From: an uncultured Candidatus Saccharibacteria bacterium | Lineage (GTDB): Bacteria > Patescibacteriota > Minisyncoccia > Portnoybacterales > UBA2143 | Direction: 5' to 3' | Length of the DNA: 64,000 nt | NCBI GenBank assembly: GCA_964596615.1 | Contig: CAZQUN010000001.1 | Location: forward strand, 66,786-130,785 | Shown: in pieces, positions 44,794 through 51,453 of the stretch | Numbering within the stretch: the stretch's first letter is position 1 | Layout of the letters: each line of letters begins with the position of its first letter | Made by a program: the position numbers and the translations under genes | The notes under the pieces: generated by a model | Told to the model about the DNA's origin: nothing | Seen by the model: only the letters and a program-made list of their open reading frames with translations | The model's database searches: none

Positions 44794-45546
44794 CTATTTC
44801 TCAATAATATCGTCTGTTGAAGTCACGGTTTCAAGGAAAATTAGGATTTCCTCGTCAATTATTCCGGTTGTAGTAGCATTATGATTGTTTTCTTCTCCAT
44901 TATCAATTAAAACCGCCAAAATATCCTGGCTAATTTCTTTAATCGTTTTTTCTGCTTCATCAATATCACCCTTAACCTCAATTGGCATTCCTTCCTTGGT
45001 TTTATCCAGGTTTTCCTTTAATCTTTTGGTCTTTTTAGCGACAACAACAGCCTCTTCTTTAGAAGAAATTCCTTTAACATGCTGGCTGAATCCAGCTAAA
45101 TTATCCTTAAAATTAGTCATGACCTGCTTGGTTTTTTCTGTTTTTTCTTCCGGACTAAAGGAATCCCCCGTTATTTTCGCCAATTCCTCTAATCGGCGGC
45201 TGGCAAATTTGACTTCCAGTTGAGTTTTGCTTTCCTGAGAAGCAACTGTTTTCTGAATATCTTCTCCTGCTCTTTTGACCGCATAAAGAAATTCTCCTGG
45301 CAAACTTGGCTCTGAGGCCTTTAATGTCAGCCATGGTCCAAGAACCAGAATCAAGGTCAAAGAGACAGCCAAAGCCATTGGCTGTAATCTCATAAACCAG
45401 CCGAAATCAAGGCTATTCCTTCCTTCTCTAACCATTTCAAAATCAATCTGAGCAGATAAATTACGGCGCAATAAGGCCAGCCAATGGCGAGACGGCTGGA
45501 TTTTATCCAATTTCTTTATTCTTTTGATTAAATCTTGTTCAGTCAT
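44794..45546 (-). CDS. Putative anti-sigma factor (single-TM, coiled-coil ectodomain)
   Basis: Immediately downstream of the ECF sigma gene; one TM at ~aa 55-75; context-based call. Confidence 0.35.
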   Translation of the reverse strand: MTEQDLIKRIKKLDKIQPSRHWLALLRRNLSAQIDFEMVREGRNSLDFGWFMRLQPMALAVSLTLILVLGPWLTLKASEPSLPGEFLYAVKRAGEDIQKTVASQESKTQLEVKFASRRLEELAKITGDSFSPEEKTEKTKQVMTNFKDNLAGFSQHVKGISSKEEAVVVAKKTKRLKENLDKTKEGMPIEVKGDIDEAEKTIKEISQDILAVLIDNGEENNHNATTTGIIDEEILIFLETVTSTDDIIEK

Positions 45547-45590
45547 GTATTACTATATTAAGACGATTAAAAACCCTTTTTGTTACAGGT

Positions 45591-46094
45591 TTAAAGCTTC
45601 TTTTTTAGAGCATTCATTGCCCGATGGACAAGAACCCGGGTTGCTCCCTCTGATTTACCTAAAATCTGGCTAATTTCCTTGGTTGAAAGTTCGTCTAAAT
45701 ACCGCCAGACAATCACATTCTGATGCTCATCTTTTAGTTGAGAAAGCGCCTTTTTAACCCCTTCCATATCCGAGTCTACCTTAATTTTAGCGCCTAGATC
45801 GCTTTTATCTTTAATTCCAGCTAAAACATTCTCGCTCGGGTTTAAAATTATTTCTTTCCTGGATTTCTTCCGATAGAGATCAATAACCAGATTATGGGCT
45901 ATCCGATAAAGTAAAGCCCGCGGATTATCTATCTTTTTCTTTTGGCGGTTGTTTTTAACATTTTGCCAGAACTTAAAAAAGGTTTCTGAAGTCAAATCTT
46001 CAGAATCTTCTGGCGAACTCACCTTTAGGAAAATGAAGCGATAAATTCGCGGAGCGTAGTTATCGTATAGTTTTACAAATTGTCTTTTTCTCAT
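45591..46094 (-). CDS. RNA polymerase sigma-70 factor, ECF subfamily
   Basis: Region 2 LYRIAHNLVIDLYRK and region 4 HTH ISQILGKSEGATRVLVHRAMNALKK. Confidence 0.8.
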   Translation of the reverse strand: MRKRQFVKLYDNYAPRIYRFIFLKVSSPEDSEDLTSETFFKFWQNVKNNRQKKKIDNPRALLYRIAHNLVIDLYRKKSRKEIILNPSENVLAGIKDKSDLGAKIKVDSDMEGVKKALSQLKDEHQNVIVWRYLDELSTKEISQILGKSEGATRVLVHRAMNALKKKL

Positions 46095-46103
46095 TTTAGC
46101 AGG

Positions 46104-46112
46104 TTATCCACA
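46104..46112 (+). promoter_or_regulatory. DnaA-box-like 9-mer, 9 nt upstream of the sigma start codon
   Basis: TTATCCACA on the plus strand. Confidence 0.35.
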
Positions 46113-46120
46113 AAAACAAG

Positions 46121-46213
46121 TAATAAGGAATTAATAAGGAATCTTCAGGATTAATAAGGAACTAATAGGGAATTAATAAGGAATTTTATTGTTCCTTATT
46201 AAGTTCCTTATTA
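46121..46213. repeat. Decamer array: 5 direct TAATAAGGAA (one TAATAGGGAA) plus 2 inverted TTCCTTATTA
   Basis: Seen directly; sits in the sigma promoter region; the inverted copies encode the C-terminal NKELNKEQ of the upstream HTH protein. Confidence 0.8.
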
Positions 46214-46722
46214 TTTCGATAAAAACTACTCCTTCCCCGGCCTTGCTGGATTAATAATTTCCTTTTAACCATTTTATTCAAATCTTTACGGATTGTTCTG
46301 GGATTAACCTTGGGAAGTAAAACTAATAATTCTTTTAATTGAACCTCTCTAACTTCTTTAATATATTTAAGAATCTTCTTTTGTCTTTCGCTTAGATTCT
46401 CAATTCTCTCTTTTTTTAAAAGATTTGTTTGTTCTTTCTTGTTTCCCCGTCTTATCTCTCTTAATAACTCATTATATCCCCTTATTAGTATATCAAAATT
46501 AACGTTTCTTATCCAATTCTGGTCCCGGGCAATTTGAAGATAACTTAAAATGATTTCTATTTTTTTACCGGCCTTTGCCCTTTGGTTTAAAGCTAAATCG
46601 GATAATATCTCATTGGCTATCCCTCTCATCTGGGAAATTAAAATCTCACCCCCGGGGAAAAGCTTGGTCACACGGTATACTGCCAAGCCTAATCTGAGTG
46701 CTTTTTCCTTCAAATCTTCCAT
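46186..46722 (-). CDS. Putative DNA-binding protein with C-terminal winged HTH (DeoR/HTH_11-like)
   Basis: SERQKKILKYIKE...VQLKELLVLLPKVNPRTIRKDLNKMVKRKLL resembles DeoR-type wHTH; N-terminal helical domain. Confidence 0.4.
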   Translation of the reverse strand: MEDLKEKALRLGLAVYRVTKLFPGGEILISQMRGIANEILSDLALNQRAKAGKKIEIILSYLQIARDQNWIRNVNFDILIRGYNELLREIRRGNKKEQTNLLKKERIENLSERQKKILKYIKEVREVQLKELLVLLPKVNPRTIRKDLNKMVKRKLLIQQGRGRSSFYRNNKELNKEQ

Positions 46723-46808
46723 GTATTAAAGAGTATATGATATTTAACAATTCAAGGCAACATAAAAGCGACTAAGAATTACTTTCCCTAGTCGCCATAT
46801 TTTTTGGG

Positions 46809-46898
46809 TGGTGGCGATGACGGGGCTCGAACCCGTGACAGTACGGCTACAGCCCACAGGTTATGAACCTGCCGCTCTATCCTCTGAGCTACATCGCC
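46809..46898 (-). tRNA. tRNA with CAT anticodon (Met/Ile2-type) carrying an unusual 19-nt variable region; 90 nt incl. CCA
   Basis: Hand fold: acceptor GGCGATG/CATCGCC, U8A9, D-stem GCTC/GAGC, anticodon stem GCAGG/CCTGT with loop TTCATAA, T-arm ACGGG-TTCGAGC-CCCGT, encoded CCA. Confidence 0.55.
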
Positions 46899-46911
46899 AC
46901 ACTTTTTGGGT

Positions 46912-46987
46912 TGGAGCGGGAGGCGGGAATCGAACCCACGACCCGCTGATTAAGACTCAGACGCTCTTCCAACTGAGCTACTTCCGC
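46912..46987 (-). tRNA. tRNA-Lys (CTT), 76 nt incl. CCA
   Basis: Hand fold: acceptor GCGGAAG/CTCCCGC (one A-C mismatch), D-stem GCTC/GAGC, anticodon loop GTCTTAA, T-arm GTGGG-TTCGATT-CCCGC, CCA. Confidence 0.65.
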
Positions 46988-47037
46988 CCAAAACCACTTA
47001 GGAACTAAAAAGAATTTATCATAAATATTTTTCCAAG

Positions 47038-47529
47038 TCAAACCTCAACCAACTCCGGACTCGCCCGGACTTTTCTAATGGGCTGGGAAATAAACTTTAT
47101 TTCAGCGGTAGCAATAGTATCTTTTCCCCTCAAAACAATTGCTCGACCTTCGGCCCAAGTATATCTCCCTAAATCTTTACTCGACATATTTTTTGTCCTC
47201 CTAAGCCGAGCCTTAACCACGACACTTTCGCCAATCAGTAAGAGGTTTTCAAAATCTATGATTGACTTCATCTCTACTCTACGAGTCATGCCCGCAATTC
47301 CATTCCTAGCAGCCAAATTACTCACCGCTCCGTCAATTAGACCGAAAATAATCGCTCCATGACAGATTCCAGGCCAACTAACATGGAAAGCATTAGGGGT
47401 AAACTCTGCTTCGCATCTGTTTTTGCCAGTATTTTCAAATTCCAGACCAAGCCCCCATGGATTTGAAGACCCGCAGACAAAACACCTGGGAGAATGTCCT
47501 TCTACTCCTGGCTTGCCATCCATAACCAA
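47038..47529 (-). CDS. Hotdog-fold thioesterase (PaaI/COG2050-like)
   Basis: CFVCGSSNPWGLGLEF matches the conserved N-terminal motif of PaaI-type thioesterases. Confidence 0.55.
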   Translation of the reverse strand: MVMDGKPGVEGHSPRCFVCGSSNPWGLGLEFENTGKNRCEAEFTPNAFHVSWPGICHGAIIFGLIDGAVSNLAARNGIAGMTRRVEMKSIIDFENLLLIGESVVVKARLRRTKNMSSKDLGRYTWAEGRAIVLRGKDTIATAEIKFISQPIRKVRASPELVEV

Positions 47530-47542
47530 TCCCTCTTTATTC

Positions 47543-48142
47543 CTATTTCAAAGAATATCCAGGGATTTTAATTTCCCCGGTTGTGATTTTTTGCAATGTT
47601 TTTGGGAATAAAATATGCTCTTGTTTTAAAACCCGGGCTGCCAAACTTTCTGGTGTATCATTTTTTTCAACCGGAACCCGAACTTGGGCAATAACCGGTC
47701 CGGTATCGTAGTCAGCATCAACAATATGAATTGAAACGCCAGTTTCCCTTTCTCCGGCTTTAAGAACCGCCTGATGAACCCTAATTCCATACATTCCGTC
47801 TCCGCCAAACTTGGGTAAAAGCGCTGGGTGAATATTTAAAATTGCCCCGTTATAGCGAGACAATATTTCCGGTCCGATTTTCTTCATATATCCAGCTAAA
47901 ACCACAATATCAACAGAATGTTTATTCAAGGCATCAATAATGGCCTGATCAAGATTTTGATGAGTCTTATTACTTAAATGAAAATAGGGGATATTTTCTT
48001 TTTTTGCTCTTTTAATTGCCCCTGAATCGCTGTTGTTACTAATGACAACAACCGGCTTTGCTTTCAAAGCCTCTGATTTGCAGGCATCAATAATCGCCTG
48101 CATATTACTTCCATTACCTGATGCTAAAAACCCAATTCTCAT
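47543..48142 (-). CDS. purN: Phosphoribosylglycinamide formyltransferase
   Basis: MRIGFLASGNGSNMQAIIDA; NIHPALLPKFGG; HIVDADYDTGPVIAQ. Confidence 0.85.
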   Translation of the reverse strand: MRIGFLASGNGSNMQAIIDACKSEALKAKPVVVISNNSDSGAIKRAKKENIPYFHLSNKTHQNLDQAIIDALNKHSVDIVVLAGYMKKIGPEILSRYNGAILNIHPALLPKFGGDGMYGIRVHQAVLKAGERETGVSIHIVDADYDTGPVIAQVRVPVEKNDTPESLAARVLKQEHILFPKTLQKITTGEIKIPGYSLK

Positions 48143-48281: not shown

Positions 48282-48629
48282 ATGAGAAAAGTAGTAATAG
48301 TTCTTTTTTTAGTCGCTGTTATGATTTTTATGACGGCGATAGGGGCGACGGCTCGCCCTGGTCACGGTCAGGCTCGCGGTCACGGTCCACGATGGCATGG
48401 ACACGGGCATGGTCCACGGTGGCCCCTTGTACCATTTGTGCCATGTCTTGTTTCGTGGCCCCATCGTGATTCACCTCCCCGTGACTATTCCGTACGGTAC
48501 GACCCAGCAGTGCCTGCCCGCGGCTGCTGGATCTGGGTTGAGAGTTACCGGATTCCAGGACATTGGAATCGTCACGGTCATTGGGTCAACGAGCTCCGAG
48601 TGGGGGAATGGAAAAGGTGTCCCCCATAA
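48282..48629 (+). CDS. GC-rich small secreted His/Arg/Trp/Pro-rich protein (115 aa) with HGPRW-type repeats
   Basis: Strong SD AAAGGAGAGAGAA-ATG; signal peptide; ~60% GC body in a ~33% GC genome; strong terminator follows. Confidence 0.5.
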   Translation: MRKVVIVLFLVAVMIFMTAIGATARPGHGQARGHGPRWHGHGHGPRWPLVPFVPCLVSWPHRDSPPRDYSVRYDPAVPARGCWIWVESYRIPGHWNRHGHWVNELRVGEWKRCPP

Positions 48630-48701: not shown

Positions 48702-49319
48702 TTATCCATTAATATCATTTAGAGCAATTTCGGCAACCTCCTCAGAGACTCCAAATATCTTTGACATTAAGACTGCTAGGTAGGAATCTAATGTCTTTTT
48801 GTCTATTTCCTCTAGTTTCTTGGATAAAGCAAGCTTATCTTTCTCTTTTAGTATTTTGTTTTTTCTAGACGCCAATATATCTCTTGGCACTAGCAAATAG
48901 TTAGCAAATTTATTTGCTTGTGTTTCCAAATAACTATACTGTTTTTCTGGAATTTCTCGGTAAAGCCTGTAAAAATCGATTGGATTTCTAATGTTAAGAC
49001 CCTTATAGAATTCTTTATGCAAAACAAAATGGCCCACTTCATGAGCCAGTGAAAATCTCAAACGATTCTGAAAACGATCGCTTAAAAACCTGCCTTTATC
49101 GACGTAGATGGATTTCCAGTTTGAAGTGATAAGAGCGTCAACATCAAAACTTTTCTGCAGTCCTGACTTGGGAATAAGGTCTATTTCTAGCTTTATATCA
49201 ATAATACTTTCTATATCAACTGGCACAGACCCATCCCAGAATTTTTCCCTAAATAAATCTGCTTTCTTTTTTACGACTAAATTATCTAAAAAGGGAACTA
49301 CTATCTTTCTGTAATCCAT
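48702..49319 (-). CDS. ImmA/IrrE family zinc metallopeptidase (COG2856-like)
   Basis: HEVGHFVLH HExxH motif; directly downstream of an XRE HTH gene. Confidence 0.7.
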   Translation of the reverse strand: MDYRKIVVPFLDNLVVKKKADLFREKFWDGSVPVDIESIIDIKLEIDLIPKSGLQKSFDVDALITSNWKSIYVDKGRFLSDRFQNRLRFSLAHEVGHFVLHKEFYKGLNIRNPIDFYRLYREIPEKQYSYLETQANKFANYLLVPRDILASRKNKILKEKDKLALSKKLEEIDKKTLDSYLAVLMSKIFGVSEEVAEIALNDING

Positions 49320-49320
49320 T

Positions 49321-49692
49321 TCAACTACCCCTGATTAATTCTATTAATTTATCTATTTCTTCCTTGGTCGGTTTTTTATTCCGAACAGTCCTAAAAAAAG
49401 CGGGTAGGTACTCAACCGCATTTTTTTGAGATAAGATATCCCGAGGAATAATGCCTTGAGCCACTTTAGCCTGATCTATAAGCTCCCCGGTTTTATTCTG
49501 GGAGAGTCCTAAAGTTTTTGCCCATTTTCGCAAGATTCTTTCATCAGACGGAGGAGAAATAATTCCTCTTTCTATTTTACTCCAATTACTTGGATCATAA
49601 TCTATTAACCGACACATCTTTCTTAGGGTTAGTCCTCTTTGAATCCTCATCTCTTTTAAGTTTTTACCAAATTTTTTAAGGTTTTTGTACAT
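49321..49692 (-). CDS. XRE-family helix-turn-helix transcriptional regulator
   Basis: LKEMRIQRGLTLRKMCRLIDYDPSNWSKIERG matches the HTH_3 pattern. Confidence 0.75.
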   Translation of the reverse strand: MYKNLKKFGKNLKEMRIQRGLTLRKMCRLIDYDPSNWSKIERGIISPPSDERILRKWAKTLGLSQNKTGELIDQAKVAQGIIPRDILSQKNAVEYLPAFFRTVRNKKPTKEEIDKLIELIRGS

Positions 49693-49719
49693 AATATTAG
49701 AGATAATTATTTATTCTCC

Positions 49720-49739
49720 TGTGGTATTATCCTACCACA
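49720..49739. promoter_or_regulatory. Operator-like palindrome TGTGGTA-ttatcc-TACCACA overlapping the XRE gene -10 region
   Basis: Seen directly; 7-bp perfect arms. Confidence 0.4.
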
Positions 49740-49767
49740 ATAATATGTTGGATGTCAAATAAACATC

Positions 49768-49776
49768 TGTGGATAA
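49768..49776 (-). promoter_or_regulatory. DnaA-box-like 9-mer, 9 nt upstream of the TTGACA -35 of the XRE gene
   Basis: The minus strand reads TTATCCACAgatgtttatTTGACA. Confidence 0.35.
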
Positions 49777-49962
49777 ATTCTACGGTTCGTATCTGATATT
49801 ATCTCCCAAAACAACATCGGAGCTAATAAGCTGCAAGGGCTGAGCACTACCATACCGGAAAAGGATATGGTCCAATTCTCCCCGACTGCCGGTAAAGAAC
49901 TTAATATTCTTCCAGTCGCCAACCGCCGGCGTTGTGCTGACATTGTCTTTTGAATTTTATTG

Positions 49963-51453
49963 TTAAATCTGAACTATTTCGTCCATTTTCGTCTGTAAGA
50001 AATTGTTAATTATCTCGTCCCTATTTCTATCAAGAACAGCATTAAGCAAGACAATTATATCTTTGTCCGTCAAAACAAATACATAAACGCTCCTATTGAT
50101 AACAAAATCTCTACAAGTTTCCAAAGCTCTTTTTTTATTTTTGATACCCCTACACACAATATACCCGATGGTAGATTCGCGGTTATTAAATCTGCCATTC
50201 ATTTGGTCATACTCAGGGTTATTTATGTCGTGACTATAATTCTTACATTCAAACAATATCTTAGCGCAGAATAATCTGCCATAATTAGATAGCCGCGAGA
50301 AAAAACCCCTATCGCTTGAATTATGAAAAGTAATGTCTATTCTTTTTCTGCCTTGGTTTTGGGGGTCTTCCTTTTTAGGACCGCATAAGTAATTACTTGA
50401 ACTGGGGTCATTAAAAATCGTATTTAAACAATCTAGAATATGTTCGTGATAATCGTCAGCATCTTGATTTCCGGGTTTTATTTTTTGAAACATTTTTATT
50501 TTCTGAGTTATAGACTCTTGTATCTCATTTTTTCTTCTTTGCTTCTTTATAATATCTTCGTTTCCAACAGTATTTAAAGCAACCTTGCTCTTTTTGTTCT
50601 TATATTCTTTTAGTAAAGTTGGACGGTCCTTAATATAATCAAACACTAGTTCCCGTGACAGATTATACCGCCCATCTTTTTTAAGAGTCTTCTTGTATGG
50701 TTTAGCTATGCTTTTGTCTTTAAGAGTCCGACATAAAGCAGTTCTCAAATCATAATGTCTGGCTTGCTCAAACTCCAGTATTCCTTTGTTGTAAAAGTCA
50801 GCATAATTTATTGAGATATGTCTTCTTAATACCCTTTTAGGCACTAGCAACATCTTTTTACCTTCAACCACCAATAATCTTTCTTGGTTTTTCTGAAGAA
50901 AATCCCTTTTAGACTCATCCCAAAATATCTTGGTCTGAGTTTCTGCCATATCAATACCATATAAATCACATTGTTGTTGGGTATACTTAATTAAATCTAA
51001 TCTAATTATGTTCGTTACAATATCAGATACATTATCATTTCCGATATTCTCTATATGTAACGCGGTATCTTCAAGGTCGTTTAAATAACCAGACTTAACC
51101 GCCTTACTCTCTTTTAATTTACGGTAAATAGCTCTTGATTTTTTTCTGCCAATAGATTTTCCATCCTTTGTCTTGCGACCATAACCCAGTCCAGTTTCGC
51201 TAGGTTCGTGTAAATTATCTAATAAATCTAAAGCTTTATCCCTATTGCCCTTACGGATATAATTTATCAATCTTTCAAAAACAGATTGTATCTTTTGATA
51301 GCAATCCACAGAAAAATCATCATCTCCGCATCTTATAGCCCAAGGATCAATAAATAGAGGCGTATCCTTTTTGATAAAGCAATCAAAAAAATCCAAATCA
51401 TACTGGGTTTTTCCTAATTCAAAATATTCGGAAATAGTCTTTTTCATTTTCAT
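49963..51453 (-). CDS. Hypothetical protein with C-terminal PD-(D/E)xK nuclease-like motif (restriction-endonuclease-like; possible defense protein)
   Basis: RIDITF ... LFECKNY (D...ExK arrangement); the 350-aa N-terminal domain has no recognisable motif. Confidence 0.35.
   Translation of the reverse strand: MKMKKTISEYFELGKTQYDLDFFDCFIKKDTPLFIDPWAIRCGDDDFSVDCYQKIQSVFERLINYIRKGNRDKALDLLDNLHEPSETGLGYGRKTKDGKSIGRKKSRAIYRKLKESKAVKSGYLNDLEDTALHIENIGNDNVSDIVTNIIRLDLIKYTQQQCDLYGIDMAETQTKIFWDESKRDFLQKNQERLLVVEGKKMLLVPKRVLRRHISINYADFYNKGILEFEQARHYDLRTALCRTLKDKSIAKPYKKTLKKDGRYNLSRELVFDYIKDRPTLLKEYKNKKSKVALNTVGNEDIIKKQRRKNEIQESITQKIKMFQKIKPGNQDADDYHEHILDCLNTIFNDPSSSNYLCGPKKEDPQNQGRKRIDITFHNSSDRGFFSRLSNYGRLFCAKILFECKNYSHDINNPEYDQMNGRFNNRESTIGYIVCRGIKNKKRALETCRDFVINRSVYVFVLTDKDIIVLLNAVLDRNRDEIINNFLQTKMDEIVQI

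Follow-up and report, generated by a model that had tools for sequence, protein, structure and literature searches.

We identified with high confidence a tRNA-Met gene of the elongator type that carries a 14-nt insertion in its variable loop, an insertion specific to one species, in a 64-kb stretch of bacterial DNA (hereafter referred to as the window). The best explanation overall, and one that we regard as probable though far from certain, is that the gene still encodes a working elongator tRNA-Met that tolerates a solvent-facing insertion. The insertion is a young oddity of a single species, and the sequences do not support a new tRNA class.

Structure of the tRNA-Met gene and comparison with its orthologue

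ARAGORN called two tRNA genes in the 64-kb window, tRNA-Met(cat) and tRNA-Lys(ctt), both of which lie on the minus strand (Table 1). The Rfam model RF00005 matched the tRNA-Met gene with a score of 61.7 bits, compared with a gathering score of 29, over positions 46812-46898 and along the whole model (model positions 1-71), with approximately 15 bases inserted after the anticodon stem and before the T stem. The covariance score was thus not below a pseudogene threshold, an outcome that would have refuted the original prediction by its own terms. The full RNA reads, from 5' to 3', GGCGAUG-UA-GCUC-AGAGGAUA-GAGC-G-GCAGG-UUCAUAA-CCUGU-GGGCUGUAGCCGUACUGUC-ACGGG-UUCGAGC-CCCGU-CAUCGCC-A-CCA, and comprises an acceptor stem (GGCGAUG/CAUCGCC) followed by A73 and CCA, a D arm (GCUC-AGAGGAUA-GAGC), an anticodon arm (GCAGG-UUCAUAA-CCUGU), and a T arm (ACGGG-UUCGAGC-CCCGU). 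All 21 stem pairs are standard, with G27.U43 being a wobble pair, and the conserved tertiary nucleotides are all kept (U8, A14, G18G19, A21, U33, G53-T54-T55-C56, A58, and C61). G45, G46, and C48 are also retained, flanking the insert, and are still free for class I core contacts. The 19-nt variable region, the anticodon loop TTCATAA, and the canonical arms that had been described for this gene were correct as judged by ARAGORN, the Rfam score, and the pairing of the stems.

Table 1. Positions of the tRNA genes and associated sequence features in the window.
Feature	Position	Strand	Basis
tRNA-Met(CAT) gene, 90 nt, CCA encoded, elongator-type	46809..46898	(-)	ARAGORN; Rfam tRNA; orthology to sister-species 77-nt tRNA-Met
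Anticodon CAT, positions 34-36	46863..46865	(-)	ARAGORN; reads ATG on plus strand
Whole 19-nt variable region GGGCUGUAGCCGUACUGUC	46837..46855	(-)	Sequence
14-nt insertion CUGUAGCCGUACUG, tRNA positions 47-60, within ancestral variable loop GGG^UC	46839..46852 (boundary uncertain by 1 nt; 46840-46853 equivalent)	(-)	Alignment with L137-L141
tRNA-Lys(CTT), co-oriented, upstream, 13 nt from tRNA-Met	46912..46987	(-)	ARAGORN; Rfam 57.5 bits
Sigma-70-like promoter site TTGACT-17-TAAATT with TG extension, upstream of tRNA-Lys	47013..47041	(-)	Consensus scan, pattern match only
Intrinsic-terminator-like hairpin and T run, 12 nt past CCA end	46767..46796	(-)	Consensus scan

The same 90-nt gene is present, without any difference, in two other assemblies, L116 (SRR8146440) and L117 (SRR24302413), which are Logan contigs from different runs that were located via the PurN protein encoded in the window (47543-48142). 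These contigs match the window with 100% identity along 12.9 and 9.7 kb, respectively; the three sequences represent one strain and are silent on population variation. Given that two independent assemblies from other runs are 100% identical to the window, the extra nucleotides are not an artefact of assembly, a concern that had been attached to the original prediction and was not borne out. With the same gene recovered in three assemblies from different runs and with different assemblers, the probability of an assembly or sequencing artefact is negligible.

A sister species was reached via a cluster-mate of the window PurN (at least 90% identical), and five assemblies of it were compared with the window (loci L137-L141, from NCBI GCA_964594965.1, ENA, two JGI metagenomes, and Logan). 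All five contain an identical, normal 77-nt tRNA-Met(cat) directly upstream of an HTH_DeoR gene, and the sequence GGCGATGTAACTCAGGTGGTTAGAGTTGCGGGTTCATACCCCGTGGGTCACCGGTTCGAATCCGGTCATCGCCACCA is found just 5' of the shared HTH_DeoR-sigma-DUF5667 gene block. Flanking DNA of the two species is 80-85% identical, and a blastn homology block with 82% identity (window 44798-46901) starts at the DUF5667 gene, takes in the HTH_DeoR gene, and reaches the 5' end of tRNA-Met. The sequence flanking tRNA-Met on its 5' side is homologous between the two species, as is the terminator hairpin on its 3' side, and the acceptor stem GGCGATG/CATCGCC is common to the two genes. The sister-species gene scored 65.9 bits with Rfam, compared with 61.7 for the window gene, and position 38 is C in the former and A in the latter. 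The variable loop of the sister species is GGGTC (5 nt) and that of the window is GGG[CTGTAGCCGTACTG]TC. The 19-nt region therefore consists of the ancestral 5-nt loop and a 14-nt insertion, and of the alternatives offered originally it is the insertion that gains support, the orthologue being a 77-nt class I tRNA-Met that lacks these 14 nt.

No donor of the 14-mer was detected within the window, where no other copy exists at up to three mismatches, and the 14-mer shares no 7-8-mers with sequence elsewhere in the tRNA operon. More distant relatives that possess the HTH_DeoR-sigma-DUF5667 block showed no tRNA-Met at the locus; none of the six that were identified via the HTH_DeoR protein has an upstream tRNA that could serve as an outgroup for polarising substitutions or dating the insertion.

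Outside the insertion, the window and sister-species genes differ at 13 of 77 aligned columns, about the same divergence as that of the flanks. Six of these differences make up three fully compensatory pairs (10-25 G-C/A-T, 29-41 A-T/G-C, and 51-63 G-C/C-G), the other seven are at unpaired, non-conserved positions, and none of the 21 stem pairs is broken in either species. The chance of such a pattern under random substitution is approximately 3e-4 for six changes in stems and 7e-4 for 13 changes anywhere. Given these compensatory pairs and the lack of any broken stem, the ability of the gene product to fold as a tRNA has been preserved since the species split, and the gene is not an old pseudogene; the comparison clearly indicates structural selection since separation from the sister species. 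All of the compensatory changes may nonetheless be older than the insertion. The pseudogene alternative of the original prediction is thus contradicted for a long-dead gene, both by the Rfam score and by the compensatory substitutions, and retains some probability for a very recent loss of function.

Amino acid identity and the status of the extra arm

The base A73 and the pairs G2-C71 and C3-G70 are minor MetRS determinants in E. coli, and all three are present in the window tRNA-Met. Recognition by MetRS is dominated by the anticodon CAU (PMC9976931), and this major determinant occupies positions 34-36. The marks of a bacterial initiator are absent, in that G1-C72 is paired rather than forming a C1xA72 mismatch and position 29-41 is A-U, so that three consecutive G-C pairs at 29-31/39-41 do not exist. 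The E. coli tRNA-Met genes metT/metU, which encode a class I elongator, share with the window gene the CAU anticodon, A73, G1-C72, G2-C71, C3-G70, A5-U68, G7, stems of 7/4/5/5 pairs, and the class I core, as well as the variable loop GGGUC (in the ancestral state of the window gene) and the T arm ACNGG/CCNGU. They differ from it with regard to the 14 extra variable-loop nucleotides, which give rise to a 19-nt region and a 90-nt tRNA.

The CAT anticodon is common to tRNAs for Met, fMet, and Ile2, and the gene might be read as a tRNA-Ile2 that carries the insertion, in which TilS would convert C34 to lysidine for the reading of AUA. A decoder of AUA is needed in an AT-rich genome such as this one (approximately 36% GC), and G27.U43 is also found in E. 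coli tRNA-Ile2. The acceptor stem argues against this assignment, given that the pairs C4-G69/C5-G68 of E. coli tRNA-Ile2, which are determinants for TilS as defined in E. coli and are species-specific and may differ in CPR bacteria, are absent, the window tRNA having G4-C69/A5-U68; G7, the loop GGGUC, and the T arm also resemble those of E. coli tRNA-Met. Overall identity, calculated as simple sequence identity, was 74.7% to E. coli tRNA-Met and 70.5% to tRNA-Ile2, with both references being a 100% match to RefSeq annotation. We consider the Ile2 reading unlikely. Elongator Met is the best assignment, with features of an initiator and of an E. coli-type Ile2 not fitting the sequence.

A variable region of more than approximately 10 nt is the length criterion for class II tRNAs, and that of the window gene measures 19 nt. 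It resembles the variable arms of the bacterial class II tRNAs for Leu, Ser, Tyr, and Sec in its length of more than 10 nt, its capacity to form a stem-loop, and its position between the anticodon stem and the T stem. Unlike these arms, however, it is not conserved in the sister species and its pairing is weak and ambiguous, and it belongs to a tRNA with the anticodon of a class I family. The class II core is characterised by a 3-bp D stem with a non-Watson-Crick 13-22 position, whereas the D stem of the window tRNA, GCUC/GAGC, contains four Watson-Crick pairs including C13-G22 and is of the class I type.

When the cloverleaf was enforced, the fold with a GGC-UGUA-GCC hairpin had a total energy of -33.0 kcal/mol and an alternative fold (G-C/G.U/C-G/(U.U)/G-C/U-A/A-U, with loop GCCG) had a total of -33.3 kcal/mol, compared with -28.4 kcal/mol when the variable region was left unpaired; unconstrained minimum free energy folding of the tRNA did not recover the cloverleaf. 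Replacement 14-mers folded equally well or better in 39% of shuffled sequences, 23% of uniform random sequences, and 11% of random sequences with 36% GC. Helix formation in the insert is therefore at chance level, and, with the insert carried by a single sequence, the hairpin has no support from covariation. The GGC-TGTA-GCC mini-hairpin that had been described originally does exist, but as one of two nearly isoenergetic folds and with no more stability than expected by chance. If the insert is placed between G46 and U47, the 14-mer corresponds to a small hairpin with imperfect pairing (CUGUA-GCCG-UACUG). In tRNA crystal structures, nucleotide 47 is directed toward solvent, and the insert would sit at this solvent-pointing part of the variable loop.

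The novel Met/Ile2 tRNA with a long variable arm of the original prediction, if taken to mean a conserved class II family, was not supported. The arm is absent in the closest relative, with its 5-nt loop, no homologue with the extension was found in the genome, metagenome, or viral collections, the fold is at chance level, and both the D stem and the core are those of class I.

Removal of the 14 nt after transcription, either as an archaeal-type bulge-helix-bulge (BHB) intron or as an excised IVS, would yield a mature tRNA of class I, and deletion of these nucleotides indeed gives exactly the GGGUC loop of the orthologue. CPR bacteria, moreover, are known for insertions in their rRNA genes. 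A permissive search for BHB motifs in tRNA-Met yielded three BHB-like matches, of which none would remove the 14 nt or regenerate a tRNA; rather, they would take out parts of the anticodon or T arms. Bacteria are not known to possess an endonuclease or ligase machinery that splices introns of the BHB type. Archaeal tRNAs with noncanonical BHB introns (for example, Thermocladium tRNA-Met; L030/L099/L114) resemble the window gene in that a CAT tRNA is extended 3' of its anticodon stem, but their hosts possess a splicing endonuclease, whereas the window is bacterial and shows no BHB around the insert. Known tRNA introns of bacteria are group I introns of hundreds of nucleotides located in the anticodon loop (PMC8450103). 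We thus consider excision to be extremely improbable. A bacterial group I intron is likewise not supported, given that the insert, at only 14 nt, is far too short and is located in the variable loop, and that the Rfam scan gave no match to an intron family. The intron alternative of the original prediction thus gained no support in either form.

The extra arm might also alter the function of the tRNA, by rendering it a substrate for a SerRS-type long-arm synthetase, with consequent Ser/Met ambiguity at AUG, or by providing a handle for another RNA-binding protein. The 19 nt are within the class II range, and G1-C72, G2-C71, and C11-G24 of the window tRNA coincide with serine identity elements of E. 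coli. Charging with serine depends on the size of the arm rather than on its sequence (PMC9976931). The window tRNA, however, has A73 and not G73, and its arm is weak and irregular, containing either a U.U mismatch or a stem of only 3 bp; a single bulge in the V stem was sufficient to abolish SerRS charging of allo-tRNAs (PMC7590224). The class I core with its 4-bp D stem and the lack of conservation of the insertion also weigh against a changed function. Finally, the Met residue of the sequence GYMKKI in the translated window PurN, which on comparison by eye with PurN sequence appears to be a conserved PurN motif, is encoded by ATG as normal. This reading is in our opinion very improbable; were it true, the gene would be a natural and very young case of a class I tRNA becoming class II-like.

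Genomic context and predicted function

The GC content of the window is about 34-44%, an ECF sigma factor and a DUF5667 protein are encoded next to the tRNA locus, and the nearest named homologues of the neighbouring proteins are from Candidatus Portnoybacteria or Patescibacteria. On the basis of GC content, neighbouring genes, and homologue annotations, the host is therefore a CPR/Patescibacteria bacterium. The tRNA-Lys(CTT) gene is atypical and deviates more from the canonical form than does tRNA-Met, with A5.C68 and U27.C43 mismatches, G32, and U73; bacterial tRNA-Lys usually has A73, and the gene may be a foreign or accessory tRNA. Together with tRNA-Met, and judged only by consensus matches to a promoter and a terminator, it looks like part of one small transcription unit. 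A homologous terminator hairpin with compensatory changes follows tRNA-Met of the sister species.

The region beyond the 5' end of tRNA-Met differs between the two species. Approximately 320 bp, from tRNA-Met to the PurN-proximal gene (window 46902-47221, L137:10934-11269), are without blastn homology to the sister. This segment contains tRNA-Lys(CTT) in the window and a tRNA-Pro(CGG)-like sequence in the sister (L137:11186-11248), the latter matching only Rfam tRNA positions 6-65 with 48 bits and having an unpaired acceptor stem and no ARAGORN call. The segment looks like a site of tRNA gene turnover. The adjacent gene (47038-47529, minus strand) encodes a protein of 161-163 amino acids without a Pfam match, whose only homologues other than itself are two thioesterases of the 4HBT/TIGR00369 family with 38-39% identity; the sister species appears to retain a truncated 90-amino acid ORF at this position. 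PurN (GAR formyltransferase; 47543-48142, minus strand) is 65-71% identical to the PurN proteins of Desulfobacteraceae, Syntrophus, Syntrophorhabdaceae, and similar taxa, and in relatives (L118, L121, and L137) it is preceded by a Y1 (IS200/IS605-type) transposase, which suggests that PurN of the window was acquired horizontally. Farther along (48702-51453, minus strand) are an M78 peptidase (ImmA/IrrE-like) and HTH_XRE pair and then a 496-amino acid DUF8370 protein, a mobile-element or defence-like module near the tRNA locus in whose position relatives have other genes (Y1 transposase or a large beta-helix/LTD protein). A 115-amino acid ORF on the plus strand (48282-48629), which was also called in L117, has a signal-like NH2-terminus and a repeat-like composition rich in His, Gly, Pro, Arg, and Trp (HGQARGHGPRWHGHGHGPRWP...).

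MetRS belongs to the class I synthetases; it recognises the anticodon and the acceptor end of its substrate, and the variable side is left facing solvent. In the explanation that we favour, that of a tRNA-Met that still works, the elongator tRNA-Met of a Portnoybacteria-like CPR bacterium has gained the species-specific insertion CUGUAGCCGUACUG in its 5-nt loop GGG^UC, with transcription, processing, charging by MetRS, and use at internal AUG codons presumably all continuing. MetRS would read the anticodon CAU, A73, G2-C71, and C3-G70, all of which are kept, and the inserted nucleotides would extend outward from the variable loop at its 46/47 side in the form of a short stem-loop, irregular in shape and weakly paired. 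This side faces solvent in class I synthetase complexes. Because MetRS leaves the variable side free, because EF-Tu and the ribosome have room here for the long arms that Leu, Ser, and Tyr tRNAs carry, and because the rest of the gene is intact, we predict with moderate confidence that the tRNA-Met with the insertion is still functional.

Engineered tRNAs provide a point of comparison. Like the window tRNA, synthetic V-arm and V-loop fusions (aptamer-tagged allo-tRNAs and V-Spinach) have a hairpin at the variable region, and they indicate that this site can permit translation, with engineered V arms able to keep translational activity (PMC7590224). Class I tRNAs of E. coli with a large aptamer inserted in the V loop, in contrast, were reported to have only marginal activity (PMC7590224). 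The insert of the window gene differs from these constructs in being natural and small, at 14 nt.

The marginal activity of such V-loop fusions also bears on the main rival to a working tRNA, in which the insertion has very recently disrupted folding, processing, or charging to leave a young pseudogene or crippled copy, with another tRNA-Met compensating. Our census of tRNA genes covers the 64-kb window, and the rest of the genome may contain another elongator tRNA-Met of normal structure, in which case the present copy could be dispensed with. A single species and strain has the insertion, and the long-variable CAT tRNAs of bacteria that our genome scan recovered are mostly degenerate duplicates or members of accessory arrays (L086, L021, and L102). 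The variability of the locus, with no tRNA-Met in distant relatives, decayed tRNA-Pro-like sequence next to the sister-species gene, and an atypical tRNA-Lys in the window, likewise favours a crippled copy and counts against our preferred explanation. On the other hand, single copies of each tRNA are usual in CPR genomes, and the gene has no further defect, with stem pairs, tertiary nucleotides, encoded CCA, and promoter-like and terminator-like sites all intact. That selection has acted on the structure of the tRNA after the two species diverged also argues against loss of function. We regard a crippled copy as a possibility to be taken seriously, although a doubtful one.

Distribution of long-variable CAT tRNAs and implications

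We scanned one genome per species, for a total of 185,579 species, with the pattern TAGCTCAG..TCATAA..N{19,34}GGTTCRA, in which the gap corresponds to a variable region of 11-26 nt. The scan returned 115 matches, nearly all of which were archaeal intron-containing tRNA-Met genes, and no relative of the window tRNA-Met was among them. A T32 version of the pattern gave 13 matches in a metagenome collection, none related, and two scans of viral contigs gave one unrelated match and then none. Our literature search found no report of a long-arm tRNA-Met in CPR bacteria. A survey of cyanobacteria lists some tRNA-Met genes with variable regions of 8-23 nt, without functional evidence (PMC6933170).

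Bacterial CAT tRNAs with long variable regions that were accepted by ARAGORN were few, being found in Saprospiraceae (L086), a Burkholderiales MAG (L021), Streptomyces (L102), and Nocardia (L033). These sporadic tRNAs are similar to that of the window in being rare, over-long (81-87 nt), and endowed with extra variable-region nucleotides or hairpins. They are unrelated to it in sequence, however, and whereas L086 is a degenerate tandem duplicate and L021 and L102 are array members, the window gene is an intact positional orthologue of a canonical gene. The Saprospiraceae MAG (L086:2409-2630) contains two tandem Ile2-like CAT tRNAs, the first of which is normal (75 nt) and the second of which has a perfect 8-bp hairpin (GTCCCGATAGCTATCGGGAC) in place of the variable loop and an unpaired 3' acceptor strand. 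The Burkholderiales MAG (a 4.4-kb contig) and Streptomyces ardesiacus (L102:6287-7110) harbour dense arrays of 16 and 6 tRNA genes, respectively, in which over-long Met (86 and 81 nt), Lys (90), Cys (87), and Trp (83) tRNAs are present; such accessory arrays seem to be enriched for variable-region expansions. In Candidatus Doudnabacteria, an elongator tRNA-Met of normal form is directly followed on its 3' side by a tRNA-Met-like sequence (L004:2480-2536) that ARAGORN did not call. The acceptor ends of the two are the same, and in the second the D/anticodon arm is disrupted and the variable region contains the hairpin CGCC-GC-GGCG.

If the window gene encodes a working elongator tRNA-Met, it would constitute a natural experiment in which a 14-nt extension of the variable loop is tolerated in a minimal CPR bacterium, with such tolerance extending to MetRS, RNase P, the enzymes that modify the variable loop, EF-Tu, and the ribosome. 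It would also capture a possible first step in the origin of a long variable arm and be of relevance to engineered tagged or orthogonal tRNAs. If the gene is instead a crippled copy, it would represent an early stage of tRNA gene decay. Either way, the event is confined to one species and should not be taken by annotation pipelines for a new tRNA class.
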